This document shows, in pieces, positions 8,958 to 19,509 of a DNA stretch of 64,000 bases (positions within the stretch are counted from its first letter, which is position 1; each line of letters begins with the position of its first letter). The notes under the pieces are model-generated. The model was not told the origin of the DNA, made no database searches, and saw nothing but the letters and a program-made list of their open reading frames with translations. Origin of the DNA: Escherichia phage muut; sequence record NC_052657.1. One strand, 5' to 3'. The position numbers and the translations under genes are program-made.

Positions 8958-9388
8958 ATAAATTACTTCAGTGTTACCACAAAGTGACGAACTGCTTTTC
9001 GTGCAGCAGAAGCCAGAGGCTTAGCATACTTAAGTTCATCTTTTTCCATTATAAATTCTCTTTTAAATGAAAATGCAGGACTTATTGGCATTGCCTGCGC
9101 AAGCCCTCAAGGGGAACATAGGTTTTTGTATATTTAACGACCAGGATAACCATAAACCCGTCATCATTCACATTCAAGAGGTACACCATAAAACTGCCGG
9201 GGTCTTAAAACTATAATGATTCGCAAATCATTAATCAGACAGTTCGATGGCTCCTCGATTTTAGCTCACACTAAGGCAGTGAATCTCCAATAAACTAAAA
9301 AATCACTTAAAAAGAACCGCTAGAGTTTGAAGGAGAAAACCATGAGCGAAAAGAGAAATTTTCTCTAGCGATTCCATTTAAATAATCT

Positions 9389-9463
9389 TGGAGCGAGTAA
9401 CAGGACTTGAACCTGCACCTGGAGGGTGGAAACCTCATATGCTACCATTAACACTATACCCGC
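9389..9463 (-). tRNA. tRNA-Gly (anticodon UCC)
   Basis: 75 nt; anticodon loop TTTCCAC, T arm GCAGG-TTCAAGT-CCTGT, acceptor GCGGGTA/TACTCGC with one G-U, CCA. Confidence 0.6.
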
Positions 9464-9518
9464 TTAACAATATTACTCTAACATATTATTAGCCCCTTTG
9501 TCAAGAGGCTTTTAATAT

Positions 9519-9842
9519 TTATTTTAAAATAGTAGATGCACCACGTCTGTTTAGATATGCAACCGTAAAGCTCAAATCACCTATTTCTTCAGGTTCCCAC
9601 TGACCTTCTAAGCCATAACAAGAACAATGATATGCGTGTACTTCATAAAACAAAGATGTTTTCATATCATAGAAATAAACGTGAGATTCGCCTTCATAAT
9701 ATGCACAATCATAAGTGGCAGAAAGAATTACAATGTTATCCTTATCTAACTCTACTTCATAATATCTTTCAACATCTTCAATATCATCAAAACCATCGAA
9801 AACATTGATATTAAAATATTTCTCTAACTCTTTTTCTGTCAC
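9519..9842 (-). CDS. hypothetical protein (about 107 aa) embedded in tRNA array
   Basis: ORF between tRNA-Gly and tRNA-Thr; probable GTG start with AGGGGG RBS. Confidence 0.45.
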   Translation of the reverse strand: MTEKELEKYFNINVFDGFDDIEDVERYYEVELDKDNIVILSATYDCAYYEGESHVYFYDMKTSLFYEVHAYHCSCYGLEGQWEPEEIGDLSFTVAYLNRRGASTILK

Positions 9843-9865
9843 ATACACCCCCTTTAGAGTTAAAT

Positions 9866-9940
9866 TGGTGCTCCCACAAGGACTCGAACCTTGATAAGTT
9901 GCTTACAAGGCAACCGTAATAGCCGTTATACGATAGGAGC
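9866..9940 (-). tRNA. tRNA-Thr (anticodon UGU)
   Basis: 75 nt; anticodon arm GTTGC-CTTGTAA-GCAAC, T arm CAAGG-TTCGAGT-CCTTG, acceptor 7 bp with one G-U, CCA. Confidence 0.65.
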
Positions 9941-10019
9941 AAAATATTTGCTTGGTAGGATTTGATACCTACAATTCTAGAAAATTCTAGAGGTTTCTAT
10001 TAACTCTACAAGCACTATT

Positions 10020-10104
10020 TGGCGATGGATCAAGGATTTGAACCTTGCTAGAACTTTCGTTCACGGATTAACAGTCCGTCGCCCAACCACTAGGCCAATC
10101 CATC
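10020..10104 (-). tRNA. tRNA-Asn (anticodon GUU) with unusually long variable arm
   Basis: Exact acceptor GATGGAT/ATCCATC, CCA, discriminator G; anticodon arm ACGGA-CTGTTAA-TCCGT; 15-nt variable hairpin GAAC-GAAA-GTTC. Confidence 0.5.
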
Positions 10105-10111
10105 TTTAATT

Positions 10112-10198
10112 TGGTGCAGGTAGTTGGACTCGAACCAACGAAGCCCCGAAGGGCAGGAGATTTACAGTCTCCAGCAATTGCCGCTATGCGATACCTAC
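10112..10198 (-). tRNA. tRNA-Tyr (anticodon GUA)
   Basis: 87 nt type II; anticodon arm GGAGA-CTGTAAA-TCTCC, variable hairpin GCCC-TTCG-GGGC, T arm GTTGG-TTCGAGT-CCAAC, CCA. Confidence 0.7.
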
Positions 10199-10203
10199 GT
10201 GTT

Positions 10204-10278
10204 TGGTACATCGTGAAGGATTCGAACCTTCGACCTTGGAGTTAAAAGCCCTTGCTCTACCAACTAAGCTAACGATGT
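10204..10278 (-). tRNA. tRNA-Lys (anticodon UUU)
   Basis: 75 nt; exact acceptor ACATCGT/ACGATGT, D arm GCTT-AGTTGGTA-GAGC, loop CTTTTAA, T arm GAAGG-TTCGAAT-CCTTC; anticodon stem only 3 bp. Confidence 0.6.
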
Positions 10279-10406
10279 ATAAATTATCTTTAAAATAGCC
10301 AGTGTTTGCGGCACTGACTATGAGGTATCGGTAAAATGGCTGCCACCATCTGCCGAAAGTTTACTCTGCTAAAGTAAGTAGCCTCAACGCTACATTAAAG
10401 ATAACT

Positions 10407-10492
10407 TGGCGGTAGATGTAGGACTTGAACCTACACGCCGTTTCCGACGACAGTTTAGCAAACTGTTGTGGCTACCATTTCACCAATCTACC
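10407..10492 (-). tRNA. tRNA-Ser (anticodon GCU)
   Basis: 86 nt type II; exact acceptor GGTAGAT/ATCTACC, anticodon arm ACAGT-TTGCTAA-ACTGT, long variable arm, CCA. Confidence 0.7.
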
Positions 10493-10500
10493 GTTTTTAA

Positions 10501-10653
10501 TTATTCAAAACAACCGGAATCTTTTTGTTCTGCTTTTACCATACGAATATTTTTACCATCTTCAGATTGTTGAAGATTAGAATACTCATAAACAACTTTA
10601 TTATTTACAATCTTAACTCCGGTAACAACCTGTCCAATAGTTTTATAATTCAT
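10501..10653 (-). CDS. hypothetical protein (50 aa)
   Basis: Start moved to internal ATG (AGGAG RBS) because longer track ORF overlaps tRNA-Ser(UGA). Confidence 0.4.
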   Translation of the reverse strand: MNYKTIGQVVTGVKIVNNKVVYEYSNLQQSEDGKNIRMVKAEQKDSGCFE

Positions 10654-10671
10654 AAAGCTCCTAGTTGAATT

Positions 10672-10761
10672 TGGAGGAAGATAATGGAGTCGAACCATCA
10701 CCGTATCACTACAATGGGCCAGGGTTCAAACCTGGTTGCGCACCGCTGCGCCCTACCTTCC
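10672..10761 (-). tRNA. tRNA-Ser (anticodon UGA)
   Basis: 90 nt type II; acceptor GGAAGGT/ATCTTCC with one G-U, anticodon arm CCAGG-TTTGAAC-CCTGG, T arm GATGG-TTCGACT-CCATT, CCA. Confidence 0.65.
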
Positions 10762-10824
10762 CGTTATCATACTTTAAATCTAACATAAAACTATCTTGCT
10801 TGTCAAGCAGTTTTTAAAACTTTT

Positions 10825-10906
10825 TGGCCGGGGTGACAGGATTCGAACCTGCATACTCCAATTACTCGGTTAACGCCTGATTAGAAGTCAGGTGAGATAC
10901 ACCCCG
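10825..10906 (-). tRNA. tRNA-Arg-like (anticodon UCU), non-canonical arm order
   Basis: Exact acceptor CGGGGTG/CACCCCG, CCA, T arm GCAGG-TTCGAAT-CCTGT; UCU hairpin sits right after U8-A9 and a D-loop-like segment follows it. Confidence 0.4.
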
Positions 10907-10978
10907 TTTTCACAGTAACTATAACAAAAAACTAAGTAAATGTCAAGATATTTTTACTAAAAATATTATTTAAATTGA

Positions 10979-11084
10979 AGCCTAGTTATGGAATCGAACC
11001 ATATTTCGTATTTAGTTAGACAAAGCGGTCTAACATATTTTTCAGGCTTTGATGGCCTCGGAATTACCAAATACCCTACTAGGC
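10979..11084 (-). ncRNA. tRNA-like element, about 105 nt, with large insertion
   Basis: Exact acceptor GCCTAGT/ACTAGGC and T arm TATGG-TTCGATT-CCATA, no CCA; inner hairpins AGGC-CATCAAA-GCCT and GTTAGAC-CGCTTT-GTCTAAC. Confidence 0.3.
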
Positions 11085-11086
11085 GT

Positions 11087-11171
11087 TGGTGCAAGTGGAG
11101 GGATTCGAACCCTCAAGCATTTAAGCGTTGCGTTTTAAGCACAATGTGTATCACCAATTCCACCACACTTG
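11087..11171 (-). tRNA. tRNA-Leu (anticodon UAA)
   Basis: 85 nt type II; exact acceptor GCAAGTG/CACTTGC, anticodon arm TTGTG-CTTAAAA-CGCAA, T arm GAGGG-TTCGAAT-CCCTC, CCA. Confidence 0.65.
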
Positions 11172-11286
11172 CATATAGGAGATGCATAGCACCTCCTTTT
11201 AAATGGTGGTTCCCCAGGGTTACAATCCCTGCCCTCGACACTTATGAGGTGTGCGCTCTCGTCAGTGAGCTATGGAACCTTGAATA

Positions 11287-12025: not shown

Positions 12026-13759
12026 TTAGTCAACCTGGATGGTTCCCATAGTACGAAGAACCTCTACATCAACACGGTTGCGGATATCAGTAAATGTTTC
12101 ATCACGTCCTTCTACTTGTGGTGTAATAACCGTACCATCTCTGAAGATAACTTGTAACTCATTGTCTTCATCTTGGATATCTTTAAAAGAAAGATTATCC
12201 ACAAGAGAAAGTTTACCATTTGTATCCTTAACAACCTTAATAAAACCTTTTGCAGAGCGTTTACCAGGATCAGTTTTAGGCTCCTTACTTACCAAAATTT
12301 CGTGTTCACCGATGATACTACCTGTTGCTTTAACAGCAAAACCAAAAGTATCTCGTGTATTGAACTGATAAGTATAACTACCAACACCAAATACAATATT
12401 GGAAGCTGCAAAACCTTTCTTCTTCAGTCGGCGTAAGATCTCGTGTTCTCGTTCAACAGTAATAGAATCACCATAAATCATACCGATGTGCTGATCAAGA
12501 ACCTTGTAGCCTTTTCGGTTGATAGTACCACCAAACACTTCCCAAAGGATTTGAATAGAACCTACTGCTTCACAATAAGGAATCTCATAAGTTTCATCAA
12601 TACAATCAGCAACACTGCAATCCTGAAGAACATTGTAATACTTATTAACATCAGCCAAATGAACTACTTCAGTGGCTGTAGCAATACCATTATTTAAAAG
12701 GTCTTCATAGTTATCAAAAGATTCAACATTGTATCCTGCAACAACTTTAACCGGATCTCCTGAGTCTGGACGAATAACAAGACGACCATTTCGTGACATA
12801 ATGGACTCTTTCAATTCTACCAGAATGCGAGTCAAGACAGCCCAGTAATCATAAGAATCTGCTACATATGAACAAAAACCTTCTGGAACAATTTCTTCAA
12901 TATAGCGGCGAAGAAACTCTTTCTCTGCTACATAACGAAGCCCATCAACATCATCTTTAAGATGTGGGAAATGTTTCTTCAGATCTTCAACAATAGCTCC
13001 AATGTTAGTCGTTGCTACTGAATGTTCTGTTGCCGGAATAGAACCTGCAACAAACTGATCATAATCAATACCATAATAATCATGCACAGTTTCAATAGCC
13101 AGAATATTATCTGTTCCTGTGAAAGATGCCAAATGAGCGATACCACTCTTATAACCATCTTCGACATTACTTAAACCACGTAGGCTAAAATCATGACACT
13201 GGAAGTTAACGTGATCAATATTATCACACGTTGCCATCGCATATGCCATAGCAATACGCTTATACTGAAAAGCTGCTGTAGCATTAGTCATTGTCTTCCA
13301 AGTTTCATCTGACAATAGTGTTTCCACATAATTAGTTAACCAAAAGAATTTTTCTAAAGTATTATGCACAGTAAACACAGGAACACCAATAGGACACAAA
13401 ACACCTTCTGGCAGAGATCGAACTTCCAGCGGAAGATAACCTAAATCGTGCAATTCTCCCCAACATTCAGCAGAAGGAGCAGAAGCACCTAATGCATTTT
13501 TAGACATACGATAAAATTTATTTACTGCTGCACTACGAGACATTTTAAAGAAGCTGTCCCACATAGTTACAAGGGCATCGGTGACTGCTCGACGAATACC
13601 TAAAACAATCACACCACGTGCTTCACGATCTGCATAGTGTGCAAAGTTTTTATCATTACGAGGAGTTAAATTAGAGAAAATGAGTTTTGTATTTTGGTTG
13701 TACATCTGCTTGTGACCAGGCTTATACCAATCAGTAGCAAAAGGTGCAAAAATATTCAT
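12026..13759 (-). CDS. nadV: nicotinamide phosphoribosyltransferase-family enzyme (NadV/Nampt-like; possibly Namat of NARP1)
   Basis: 577 aa; resembles NadV/Nampt by eye and co-operonic with a Prs-like gene; family membership inferred, not searched. Confidence 0.65.
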   Translation of the reverse strand: MNIFAPFATDWYKPGHKQMYNQNTKLIFSNLTPRNDKNFAHYADREARGVIVLGIRRAVTDALVTMWDSFFKMSRSAAVNKFYRMSKNALGASAPSAECWGELHDLGYLPLEVRSLPEGVLCPIGVPVFTVHNTLEKFFWLTNYVETLLSDETWKTMTNATAAFQYKRIAMAYAMATCDNIDHVNFQCHDFSLRGLSNVEDGYKSGIAHLASFTGTDNILAIETVHDYYGIDYDQFVAGSIPATEHSVATTNIGAIVEDLKKHFPHLKDDVDGLRYVAEKEFLRRYIEEIVPEGFCSYVADSYDYWAVLTRILVELKESIMSRNGRLVIRPDSGDPVKVVAGYNVESFDNYEDLLNNGIATATEVVHLADVNKYYNVLQDCSVADCIDETYEIPYCEAVGSIQILWEVFGGTINRKGYKVLDQHIGMIYGDSITVEREHEILRRLKKKGFAASNIVFGVGSYTYQFNTRDTFGFAVKATGSIIGEHEILVSKEPKTDPGKRSAKGFIKVVKDTNGKLSLVDNLSFKDIQDEDNELQVIFRDGTVITPQVEGRDETFTDIRNRVDVEVLRTMGTIQVD

Positions 13760-17259: not shown

Positions 17260-17619
17260 ATGTGCGCTACTAATCAACATGATATTTGTTACCAACCTCT
17301 TACCTGGATTGGTGAGGATCACTATGCTCAACGTGTTATAGTCTGCGCTGCGAATAAGTATATTCTCAATAATGGCGAAGAGTTAATTATTCCTTGTGTT
17401 AGACATGCAAATCCTGTACTATCTGCACAACTTAATGTTTTAAAAGATGCAGGATTGATTGATAAACTGTTTTGCTTACCTGATAATCAAGGGTTTATTG
17501 ATCAGTATTATAATTGGTGGAGTCGAAAAGATGCTTATATCATTGCAGATAACGCCAAACAAATTAACTACGAAAGAAATGGTCACAACAGTGAACTATT
17601 CAGCGAGGGATTATACTAA
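17257..17619 (+). CDS. hypothetical protein (120 aa)
   Basis: Track ORF; no motif recognised. Confidence 0.45.
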   Translation: MMCATNQHDICYQPLTWIGEDHYAQRVIVCAANKYILNNGEELIIPCVRHANPVLSAQLNVLKDAGLIDKLFCLPDNQGFIDQYYNWWSRKDAYIIADNAKQINYERNGHNSELFSEGLY

Positions 17620-18170
17620 TGTTTATTACAAGTGATTTGCATTTTATGCACAAACGTATCCGAGAGTTTGCTCCTGAATATCGCCCGTGGGAAGATATGG
17701 AGCATATGACAGAAGCACTGATCGAAGCATGGAATAAATGTGCCACAACACCAGGAGTAAAGATGTACCATCTTGGGGACTTCTGTTTCGGGACTGAAGA
17801 AGATACCCGTAAGATTGCTTCCCGTCTCCAAGGAGATATTACTTACTGTGTTGGGAACCATGATTACAGCAAACACAGAAAAGTGCTTGCAGAGTATGGA
17901 GAAGTTGTGTATTATGACGAAGTGAAATATCAGAAGCTGTTCTTCGTCTTAAGTCATTACCCTATGGCTGCCTGGAATAAACAAGGGCATGGATCAATCA
18001 TGCTACACGGACACTCTCACGGATCATTCCCTGATCATTTATATGGGAAAATGTTGGATGTTGGTTGGGATGCACACGGGAAAATCTTGCATTTTGACGA
18101 AATCATCTCTATTATGGATAAGCGTGATATTATTGTTGTAGATCATCATAAGATAATCAAAGGAGATTAA
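17619..18170 (+). CDS. calcineurin-like metallophosphoesterase (candidate RNA 3-prime/2-prime,3-prime-phosphatase)
   Basis: Motifs SDLHF, LGDFCFG, VGNHD, LHGHSHG; first gene of phosphoesterase-ligase-kinase trio. Confidence 0.65.
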   Translation: MFITSDLHFMHKRIREFAPEYRPWEDMEHMTEALIEAWNKCATTPGVKMYHLGDFCFGTEEDTRKIASRLQGDITYCVGNHDYSKHRKVLAEYGEVVYYDEVKYQKLFFVLSHYPMAAWNKQGHGSIMLHGHSHGSFPDHLYGKMLDVGWDAHGKILHFDEIISIMDKRDIIVVDHHKIIKGD

Positions 18171-18171
18171 G

Positions 18172-19104
18172 GTGGCTAAGTTCAATTGTGATGACCTGAT
18201 TGCAAAAGGTTTAGTGCATAAAAAAGAAGTTAAATCTGGAGAGTATGCTGGTCTTGCTGTACTTAAATACAAAAACAATGTATTCTGGGATAACTTGTGG
18301 AACGTTGACAAACGACTTTTAGATTGTCGTGGGTTGGTTGTTGACTCAGAAGACAATGTTGTTATTTGGCCTTTTACTAAAATCTTTAATCGTTTTGAAA
18401 ATGGTACAGATCTTCCAGCAGACGAAATTGTAGATGCTGTCCGTAAAGTAAACGGTTTTATGGCATCTGTAGGTGTGTACAAAGGGAAACTTGTTGTATC
18501 AACAACAGGGAGCCTAGAATCAGATTTCGCAATTATGGCAAAGAACCGTATTGTTTCCGAGTGTGACGACATAGAGTATTTCATTAAGTGGACAGAAAGT
18601 GCAAAAGCAACTTTTCTTTTTGAAATCTGTGATCCTTCTGATCCACATATTGTCGAAGAAGAACCAGGCGCATACTTAATTGGAGCAAGAATTCAAAATC
18701 TTGATGGGACAAGTTTCATGTTACCTGAAGGTGTTCTTGATGGGATTGCATCTGTTACAAAATTTAAACGTCCTGAAGTTTATCCGATGATTAAATTTTC
18801 AGATGTTGTTGAAATGTCTAAACATTGTAAACACGAAGGGTTTGTTGTTCGTGAAACAAACTATCCGTTTAACTTACTGTTAAAGATTAAGTCACCATAC
18901 TATCTTGCTAAAAAATTCCTTATGCGTGGTGGCAATAAGAAGTGGGATATGATTTGGGACAACCCAAACAATGCTAAACAAATTGTTGACGAAGAATATT
19001 ATACTTTGCTAGAATGGCTTCGAAACAACTTTACTAAGACTCAATGGGCTGCTTTAGATCCACAAGAGCGACGTAAAGAAATAGAAAACTTCTTTGGAGG
19101 CTAA
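18172..19104 (+). CDS. RNA ligase-like nucleotidyltransferase
   Basis: Motif I KVNGF, III FLFEICD, IV EGFVVRE, V LLKIKS; GTG start with AAAGGAG RBS. Confidence 0.55.
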   Translation: MAKFNCDDLIAKGLVHKKEVKSGEYAGLAVLKYKNNVFWDNLWNVDKRLLDCRGLVVDSEDNVVIWPFTKIFNRFENGTDLPADEIVDAVRKVNGFMASVGVYKGKLVVSTTGSLESDFAIMAKNRIVSECDDIEYFIKWTESAKATFLFEICDPSDPHIVEEEPGAYLIGARIQNLDGTSFMLPEGVLDGIASVTKFKRPEVYPMIKFSDVVEMSKHCKHEGFVVRETNYPFNLLLKIKSPYYLAKKFLMRGGNKKWDMIWDNPNNAKQIVDEEYYTLLEWLRNNFTKTQWAALDPQERRKEIENFFGG

Positions 19105-19509
19105 ATGAAACAACTTATCATCTTACGTGGTGTTTCAGGTGCAGGTAAATCTACAGTAGCAGAAATTATTTCTGAAGGTTATTGGCCTATCTGTGAGGCA
19201 GATCAATATCATTACACAGAAAGTGGTGTTTACGATTGGAAGCCAGAGAATGTAGGTAAAGCACACGCATGGTGTCAGAGTATTGTTCGTGATGCTATGG
19301 CATCTAATATTAAAAAGATTATTGTCTCTAACACTTCAACCACAGAGAAAGAACTTAAACCTTATTTAACTCTTGCTGAAGAGTTTGGTTATCAAGTTAT
19401 CTCTTTAGTAGTTGAAAATAGGCACGGTAACGACTCAATTCATGAGGTTCCACAACATATTCGTGATCAGCAAGAGAAACGTCTTCGCAGTTCACTTAAA
19501 CTACAATAA
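19105..19509 (+). CDS. polynucleotide 5-prime-kinase-like P-loop kinase
   Basis: ILRGVSGAGKST P-loop and later segment resembling T4 Pnk kinase domain. Confidence 0.6.
   Translation: MKQLIILRGVSGAGKSTVAEIISEGYWPICEADQYHYTESGVYDWKPENVGKAHAWCQSIVRDAMASNIKKIIVSNTSTTEKELKPYLTLAEEFGYQVISLVVENRHGNDSIHEVPQHIRDQQEKRLRSSLKLQ

Follow-up and report, generated by a model that had tools for sequence, protein, structure and literature searches.

A one-base deletion shortens the anticodon stem of a tRNA-Lys gene at a variable G run in phi92-like phages

The 64,000-nucleotide stretch of Escherichia phage muut analysed here (sequence record NC_052657.1, hereafter 'the window') carries a tRNA-Lys(UUU) gene whose anticodon stem appears to hold only three base pairs. 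We asked whether this stem reflects an error in the sequence, a lesion that the phage tolerates, or a change that shields the tRNA from nucleases of the host. The region containing the gene is that of a phi92-like phage (Justusliebigvirus, Stephanstirmvirinae), with 99.9% identity to phage ESCO9 and 97–99.7% to other phi92-like phages. The window exactly matches no database record; the best matches reach 98.4–98.9% over 25 kb. The features of the locus are as follows.

8242–11279, minus strand: tRNA gene cluster, with 15 ARAGORN calls and one tRNA-like element (ARAGORN, Rfam).
10204–10278, minus strand: tRNA-Lys(UUU) gene, one-G-deleted allele, 75 nt with CCA (ARAGORN; Rfam, 59.3 bits; same as the ESCO9, cardinal and VEcB alleles).
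10249–10253, minus strand: A26/A27 and the G run (AAGGG), five nucleotides instead of the expected six (alignments with relatives; deletion in the Rfam alignment).
10242–10248, minus strand: anticodon loop CUUUUAA, with the anticodon UUU at 10246–10244 (identical to the loop of E. coli tRNA-Lys, lysT/W/Y/Z/Q).
10237–10241, minus strand: 3' strand of the anticodon stem, C39 U40 C41 C42 A43 (host UCAAU; differs at 39, 40 and 41).

ARAGORN placed the tRNA-Lys(UUU) gene, with its CCA encoded, at exactly 10204–10278 on the minus strand, and Rfam model RF00005 matched it with 59.3 bits (E = 1.5e-11; threshold 29 bits), which confirms the assignment made in a preliminary description of this DNA. The canonical acceptor, D and T arms and the CTTTTAA loop noted in that description were also borne out. 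The RNA reads ACAUCGU UA GCUU AGUUGGUA GAGC AAGGG CUUUUAA CUCCA AGGUC GAAGG UUCGAAU CCUUC ACGAUGU A CCA. Its acceptor stem has seven Watson-Crick pairs, its D arm a 4-bp stem (GCUU/GAGC) closed by the loop AGUUGGUA, and its T arm a 5-bp stem (GAAGG/CCUUC) with the loop UUCGAAU; the variable loop, discriminator A73 and encoded CCA are canonical too. U8, A14, G18G19 and A21 are conserved and all nucleotides of the tertiary interactions are intact. The acceptor, D and T stems of the RF00005 cloverleaf are as expected, and the seven-nucleotide anticodon loop has U33, the anticodon UUU and a purine at position 37.

In E. coli the identity elements read by LysRS are the anticodon (U34–U36) and the discriminator A73. 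Both are present in the window sequence, and the tRNA, presumably expressed from the minus strand like the other genes of the cluster, would be expected to be charged by the host enzyme and to read AAA and AAG. The score lies about 9.6 bits below that of the common GGGG allele described below and far above the threshold, so that neither score nor loss of conserved elements marks the gene as a tRNA pseudogene. The locus is a genuine phage tRNA-Lys(UUU) gene, and is already annotated as such.

The departure from the norm lies in the anticodon stem. The gene is 75 nt long including CCA, where 76 are expected, and ARAGORN reports position 33 for the anticodon, one short of the usual 34. Five nucleotides (AAGGG, 10253–10249) separate the end of the D stem (C25) from C32, where six are expected (nucleotide 26 plus positions 27–31), and a 5-bp anticodon stem following a single nucleotide 26 was not found. 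The Rfam alignment shows one deleted column in the 5' strand of this stem together with two non-standard pairs. The GGG at 10251–10249 is what remains of a GGGG run (positions 28–31) in the common 76-nt allele, with the alignment gap for the missing G placed at 10250.

At most three standard pairs can form in any register of the window stem. The 3-bp stem of the preliminary description therefore stands, although its cause, a missing base, had gone unseen; the A-A and A-C mismatches proposed there at 27:43 and 28:42 hold only if nucleotide 26 is absent. In folding predictions, which treat unmodified RNA, are unreliable and serve as indications only, that register scored −15.8 kcal/mol and a register with U40 bulged −15.5 kcal/mol, while the best cloverleaf (G28-C42, G29-C41, G30·U40, with C39 unpaired and an 8-nt loop) reached −17.1 kcal/mol. 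The predicted minimum-energy fold (−19.4 kcal/mol) is not that of a tRNA, and in it the anticodon is sequestered by pairing. For the 76-nt GGGG allele the cloverleaf is itself the predicted minimum-energy fold (−19.6 kcal/mol), with a probability of about 0.46 for each stem pair, as against 0.02 or less for every canonical-type stem pair in the deleted allele. Minimum-energy folding likewise does not predict cloverleaves for the tRNA-Lys of E. coli, phi92 and PD06. Because such folds separate the alleles unreliably, we compared alleles by explicit-structure scores and pair probabilities. A reading of the possible 8-nt loop as a frameshift suppressor was dropped, as nothing was found in its support.

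We then surveyed the alleles of this gene in GenBank. Queries with three sequences, namely the 75-nt gene and the alleles 'outra' (76 nt) and 'alia', together retrieved 54 records (some of them duplicates), and the adjacent tRNA-Tyr and tRNA-Asn block retrieved 54 as well. The census divides into 43 records of the window type and 11 of the alia type.

GGGG (AGGGG/CUCCA, 4 bp, A27·A43 mismatch): 28 records, including two of PHB05, also with U13C.
GGUG (U30·U40): 8 records, namely PD06 (two), PD211, phiWec187 and four 'Campylobacter' records, the last four with G46A in addition (for PD211 and three of these four, the assignment follows from identity score and record length rather than from the sequence itself).
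GGGU (U31·C39): 2 records, phi92.
GGG- (one G deleted): 5 records, namely ESCO9, cardinal, VEcB (two) and UAB_1.
Alia type (CUUGA/UCAAG, 5 bp): 11 records, with D arm, anticodon stem and variable loop replaced, and acceptor stem, T arm and flanks unchanged.

Scans for the 3' half of this gene contributed just two informative IMG/VR loci and one metagenome locus, and found nothing in bacterial genomes. Among their other matches, one IMG/VR locus was PD06 itself and two metagenome contigs, of unrelated DNA, had matched by chance. The four records labelled as 'Campylobacter phage' (MG065639, MG065645, MG065656 and MG065689) are Justusliebigvirus genomes about 97% identical to the window over this region; the one that was retrieved is marked UNVERIFIED, and all four are probably mislabelled or contaminants.

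The same 75-nt allele as in the window occurs in ESCO9 (France), cardinal (USA) and VEcB (Russia), while UAB_1 (Spain) carries the one-G deletion plus extra changes. These phages, from chicken caecal content (ESCO9), Stanford wastewater (cardinal), Russian sewage (VEcB) and Spanish hen houses (UAB_1), were isolated and sequenced independently, and the window is the fifth genome. A one-base length difference in a G run is the classic sign of a homopolymer miscount in sequencing or assembly, but the same deletion in the window and four separately sequenced phages from four countries, with common flanking markers, effectively refutes that explanation: a change found in five independent genomes is a true deletion, not a sequencing error. 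A sequencing correction that restores full pairing, which the preliminary description had named as a possible refutation, is hardly to be expected of a deletion seen in five genomes, and the undeleted allele is itself incompletely paired.

We aligned 1 kb from 11 genomes, cardinal not among them; at 10379–10388 the window, ESCO9, VEcB and UAB_1 have states in common that are absent from the non-carriers. Because these flanking markers are common to the carriers, we conclude that the deletion arose once and was inherited by a small clade comprising the window, ESCO9, cardinal, VEcB and UAB_1. The tRNA-Lys of UAB_1 adds C41A, by which another stem pair is lost, and A59G. UAB_1 is the only carrier with further lesions; the other four are unchanged, at a divergence too low for statistical power.

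The deletion lies at a place where the gene varies repeatedly. Among nine distinct alleles, the proportion of paired cells is 100% in the acceptor and T stems, 94% in the D stem and 74% in the anticodon stem. By parsimony, the window-type tRNA-Lys underwent seven changes in 76 nt, against five in the 423 nt of five neighbouring tRNAs (Fisher P = 6e-4). Of these seven, four lie in the anticodon stem with its ten positions (P = 0.008), and three, namely G30U, G31U and the G deletion, arose independently within the 4-nt G run (P = 0.004); all three P values are post hoc and should be read accordingly. No change was seen in the acceptor and T stems across some 43 genomes. The changes in the neighbouring tRNAs are few and mostly preserve pairing, whereas all of those in the tRNA-Lys anticodon stem break pairs. 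The Tyr and Asn block (179 nt) is at least 98.9% identical in 54 of 54 records, and the GGGG run of the neighbouring tRNA-Tyr showed no change in the alleles read. As a control, T5-type tRNA-Lys (four variant copies sequenced, from 23 matching records) varied only in the T loop and variable loop, with an invariant anticodon stem. The G run is a hot spot of variation within the genus, and this hypervariability across the locus is a more interesting observation than the deletion alone.

Several defence nucleases act on this part of the molecule; host tRNA-Lys(UUU) is reported as a target of AriB, PrrC and a Schlafen and, more slowly, of P2-OLD. The PARIS nuclease AriB, which also targets Thr(UGU) and Asn(GUU), cuts the E. 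coli tRNA-Lys stem at 40|41 (U36-A-A-U-C|A41); its key determinant is the 31:39 pair, cleavage being abolished by U39A or a 31:39 swap and reduced by A41C, and T5 tRNA-Lys (UAAACC) escapes through changes at 39 and 41 (PMC11464382, PMC12409363). P2-OLD makes two stem cuts at CNG motifs, mainly in tRNA-Thr and more slowly in tRNA-Lys, and phage tRNA-Thr resist it through an altered motif and a stem shortened by a U43A-type change; the substrates of Toprim nucleases are double-stranded stems, which these enzymes tend to cut 3' of cytosine (PMC12445682). A bacterial Schlafen cleaves tRNA-Lys at 30|31 (PMC13056530).

Positions 36–41 of the window tRNA read UAACUC, compared with UAAUC|A in the host and UAAACC in T5. 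At 39–41 the window has CUC in place of the host UCA: the C40 after which AriB cuts is lost, and A41C matches the Mut2 change of T5. Neither strand of the window stem contains a CNG motif. The phage thus encodes a Lys(UUU) tRNA with the anticodon of a nuclease-targeted host tRNA and with an altered sequence at a nuclease cleavage site. Because its 3' strand differs from the host at the AriB cut site, the family would fit, by analogy, a known kind of gene, that of the nuclease-insensitive spare tRNA.

The closest model is the tRNA-Lys(UUU) of T5, also a virulent coliphage that carries this isoacceptor in a large tRNA cluster. Like the window's gene family, the T5 tRNA has a host-like loop and a 27:43 mismatch, leaving a 4-bp stem, and like the window it has substitutions flanking the AriB cut site, including A41C. 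The two nevertheless belong to different tRNA lineages. The T5 stem is invariant across the relatives sequenced, whereas that of Justusliebigvirus is polymorphic and, in the window, one nucleotide short; moreover, resistance and function have been demonstrated for the T5 tRNA, while the window type in Justusliebigvirus is known from sequence. The P2-OLD-resistant tRNA-Thr(UGU) resembles the window tRNA in its shortened stem (27:43 lost) and in changes at the stem cut sites, but there these are substitutions that leave the strands equal, whereas the window has a deletion that leaves strands of 4 and 5 nt (PMC12445682).

A stem of four pairs would itself seem unexceptional. The 27:43 mismatch recurs in the tRNA-Lys of phages T5, CR3, Sugarland and SUSP2, and 27:43 is unpaired in 11% of bacterial tRNA-Lys(UUU) genes (PMC13092985), so the 4-bp stem found throughout the genus is ordinary. 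The GGGG allele, with 27:43 unpaired, four contiguous pairs (28–31:39–42) and equal strands, belongs to the same class as the bacterial 4-bp-stem tRNAs, which were described in a paper without phages (PMC13092985); the window allele, with three pairs and unequal strands, falls outside it. The broader suggestion of the preliminary description, that an altered anticodon stem in a phage tRNA could affect nuclease recognition, is well founded in general (T5 and AriB, tRNA-Thr and P2-OLD), while its specific claims are weaker. Our literature search found no published nuclease-resistance or rescue test of a window-type allele (the alia type alone appears, against PrrC170) and no study in which phi92-like phages were challenged with PARIS, PrrC or a Schlafen. 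Justusliebigvirus is reported to be sensitive to Ec2ApeA, an enzyme whose cuts fall in the loops of other tRNAs.

With moderate confidence, we favour reading the 3-bp stem as a tolerated lesion in a genuine spare tRNA. By analogy, the gene family most likely supplies nuclease-insensitive and extra tRNA-Lys to a lysine-rich phage. Its stem is short by nature in the genus (4 bp, A27·A43, as in several other phage tRNA-Lys), with a 3' strand unlike that of the host where stem-cutting defence nucleases act; E. coli itself already has at least five identical tRNA-Lys genes. The 3-bp state results from the loss of one G from the GGGG run, once, in a small clade, and is probably a non-adaptive lesion at a mutation-prone, weakly constrained spot. 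The deletion would weaken or abolish the function of the tRNA and would be tolerated because the gene is accessory. A clade-specific deletion overlies a genus-wide 4-bp stem, and the 3-bp state is more likely a lesion than a design.

Several results argue for such a lesion. The Rfam scores fall stepwise from allele to allele (alia 73.6, GGGG 68.9, GGUG 66.0, GGGU 63.7, deleted 59.3 and UAB_1 52.8 bits), the predicted probability of the hairpin drops as given above, and the cloverleaf is no longer the minimum-energy fold. UAB_1 has decayed further (C41A and a degenerate tRNA-Thr). The validated T5 tRNA-Lys keeps its stem invariant, and the intact GGGG allele is in the majority (28 of the 43 window-type records). 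Runs of G are prone to slippage and to G-to-T change, and it is plausible from this general knowledge that the run is a hot spot for both. Against a lesion, the clustering of changes in the G run is hard to obtain from uniform neutral decay, and the hot spot coincides with the Schlafen cut site 30|31 and pairs with the AriB site. Nor is the deleted allele strongly deleterious, being geographically widespread and free of additional lesions in all carriers but UAB_1.

The clustering, together with the stability of the GGGG run in tRNA-Tyr and of the Tyr and Asn block, could instead reflect selection rather than mutation bias. Positions 30 and 31 would then be under diversifying selection by anticodon-arm nucleases (a Schlafen at 30|31, AriB at 40|41 and OLD-type Toprim enzymes), with G30U, G31U or loss of a G unpairing the loop-proximal part of the stem so that the double-stranded substrate would be gone while decoding is kept. 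We regard this adaptive escape as possible but not likely. It would account for changes that cluster in the G run and always break anticodon-stem pairs, beside neighbouring tRNAs that change little and mostly with pairing preserved, and it agrees with what is known of the enzymes: Toprim nucleases act on paired stems, resistance to P2-OLD owes something to stem shortening, AriB depends above all on the 31:39 pair, and a Schlafen cuts between 30 and 31. On the other hand, the resistant tRNA-Lys of T5 escapes with a fully conserved and paired stem, the GGGG allele is still the majority, the proneness of G runs to slippage and G-to-T change could explain the clustering, and UAB_1 shows ongoing decay.

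A fuller version of the same idea would have phages and host nucleases in conflict over pairs 30:40 and 31:39 of this tRNA-Lys in Justusliebigvirus. The pairs would have been repeatedly opened, down to a 3-bp stem and possibly an 8-nt loop, in a tRNA that still decodes AAA and AAG, with module swapping, and possibly an HNH homing endonuclease, as a second route to change at the locus; we consider this rather unlikely. Lysine codons make up 76 per 1000 in the long ORFs of the window, and codon supply is a possible basic role of the gene. Codon supply leaves the anomaly of the stem unexplained.

If the deletion is only a lesion, tRNA gene counts in phages may include weakened copies that standard finders call without warning, and such counts serve to predict the codon supply or counter-defence capacity of therapeutic phages. 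If the hot spot is adaptive, GGGG, GGUG, GGGU, the deleted form and the swapped module would constitute a natural allelic series, which could show how much stem pairing a working tRNA gives up to evade AriB, OLD and Schlafen nucleases. That question follows directly from publications of 2024–2026.

PrrC, to which the preliminary description had linked the altered stem, cuts in the anticodon loop. The loop of the window tRNA is identical to that of host tRNA-Lys, and the known cutters of the tRNA-Lys stem are AriB, P2-OLD and a Schlafen. That the altered stem specifically changes recognition by PrrC is therefore improbable; evasion of stem-cutting nucleases by the gene family as a whole is a context with better support. 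Phage tRNA-Lys of several genera, including the alia type with its host-identical loop, have been put through a PrrC170 rescue assay, where phage tRNAs were said generally to circumvent PrrC170 while E. coli tRNA-Lys rescued poorly (PMC11555353); features outside the loop therefore matter. The alia-type tRNA assayed there is encoded at the same locus and is identical to that of the window in acceptor stem, T arm, loop and flanks, but has a different D arm, anticodon stem and variable loop. All five pairs form in its stem (CUUGA/UCAAG), and the UAAUCA site remains as in the host. A weak stem was thus not needed.

The phage also encodes what is the established remedy for PrrC damage, an Rnl1-family RNA ligase, with a phosphoesterase-like gene on one side and a kinase-like gene on the other. 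These three adjacent genes (17619–19509, plus strand), some 7 kb away from the tRNA cluster, look like a tRNA heal-and-seal cassette.

17619–18170, plus strand: phosphoesterase-like gene (PF12850, 20.6 bits, below the cut-off).
18172–19104, plus strand: T4 Rnl1-family RNA ligase (PF09511, 54.3 bits; 'RNA ligase/RNA repair' in PD06).
19105–19509, plus strand: AAA_33 P-loop kinase (PF13671, 39.8 bits).

The arrangement recalls the Pnkp and Rnl1 enzymes with which T4 repairs PrrC-cleaved tRNA-Lys. The T4 strategy is to repair the host tRNA, whereas that of a phage tRNA-Lys is to replace it. The two may be complementary defences, since ligases cannot undo the two-cut amputation of a stem (PMC12445682).

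The alia-type module is sometimes linked to a gene for an HNH endonuclease, which raises the prospect of a conflict at the level of DNA. Bas62 (JohannJBalmer) and Serratia phage KKP_3264 each carry an ORF for an HNH endonuclease of 126 aa (PHROG 4234, E = 4.6e-25), inserted immediately ahead of nucleotide 1 of tRNA-Lys; a Pfam search did not recognise this ORF, which PHROGs matched.

Bas62 (L023), 1440–1820: HNH homing endonuclease ORF bas62_0256, its last codons overlapping tRNA-Lys; such an ORF is also present in Serratia phage KKP_3264 (L008).

EC_OE_11 has a homing-endonuclease annotation over tRNA-Lys. All three phages are of the alia type, and the endonuclease ORF was found only with the alia-type module. 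Homing-endonuclease annotations overlap tRNA-Lys also in the T5-like phages HMD-P4 and LmqsSP1. The enzyme might target the tRNA-Lys of genomes that lack it, in which case the hot-spot changes and the module would be cleavage-resistant alleles or tracts of co-conversion. These associations speak for such a conflict, but A1 is the first nucleotide in six of the 11 alia-type records, as in phage alia, which has the module without the endonuclease and a junction identical to that of the window; some 30 bp separate the hot spot from the point of insertion; and no endonuclease homologue was found in the window. We hold it to be very improbable as an explanation of the variable stem. Endonuclease-driven gene conversion could explain the module swap, for which no donor was found in the phage collection; that the endonuclease selects for changes in the tRNA-Lys DNA is less probable.

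Within the cluster, the genes for Thr(UGU), Asn(GUU), Tyr(GUA) and Lys(UUU) stand side by side at 9866–10278, and all four are tRNAs with known defence nucleases. The minus strand of the cluster is enriched in promoter-like TTGACA sites (17, where shuffles gave 9.4±2.9). Of the promoter-like sites in the region the best, TTGACA-17-TATAGT at 10946–10918, lies just upstream of a tRNA-like element (10828–10906, minus strand) that was found by Rfam only (38.6 bits), with no ARAGORN call. This element has acceptor, anticodon and T arms, the loop CUUCUAA (UCU, Arg), only four nucleotides where a D arm would be, and a variable region of 20 nt. Two further minus-strand ARAGORN calls, tRNA-Ser(UGA) at 10672–10761 and tRNA-Met(CAU) at 11204–11279, fall under the Rfam tRNA threshold; the best Rfam model for the former is tRNA-Sec (35.1 bits against a threshold of 47), and the annotation of phi92 lists it as a pseudogene.

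The class II tRNA shape is normally limited in bacteria to Leu, Ser and Tyr. The tRNA-Asn(GUU) of the window (10020–10104, minus strand; 85 nt) has a long variable arm; its anticodon arm retains the AriB site UAAUC|C, as in the host, and 12 of the 13 relatives read carry an identical gene. The tRNA-Thr(UGU) gene (9866–9940, minus strand) has its acceptor stem and UAAGCA stem-loop (U39G relative to E. coli thrU) in common with the tRNA-Thr of T5, one of the three T5 tRNAs that jointly neutralise PARIS. In UAB_1 (L019: 501–575, 675–759 and 839–914) all three PARIS-targeted tRNAs are altered: tRNA-Asn has a stem pair broken by G29U, and tRNA-Thr is degenerate, with a different anticodon stem containing C31·C39 and a broken T arm, beside the tRNA-Lys described above. 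The tRNA-Tyr and both tRNA-Ser genes of UAB_1 are unchanged. Finally, the cluster adjoins a pair of NAD-salvage genes: a 577-aa ORF (12026–13759, minus strand) that relatives annotate as nicotinamide/nicotinate phosphoribosyltransferase, and, next downstream, a phosphoribosylpyrophosphate synthetase gene.
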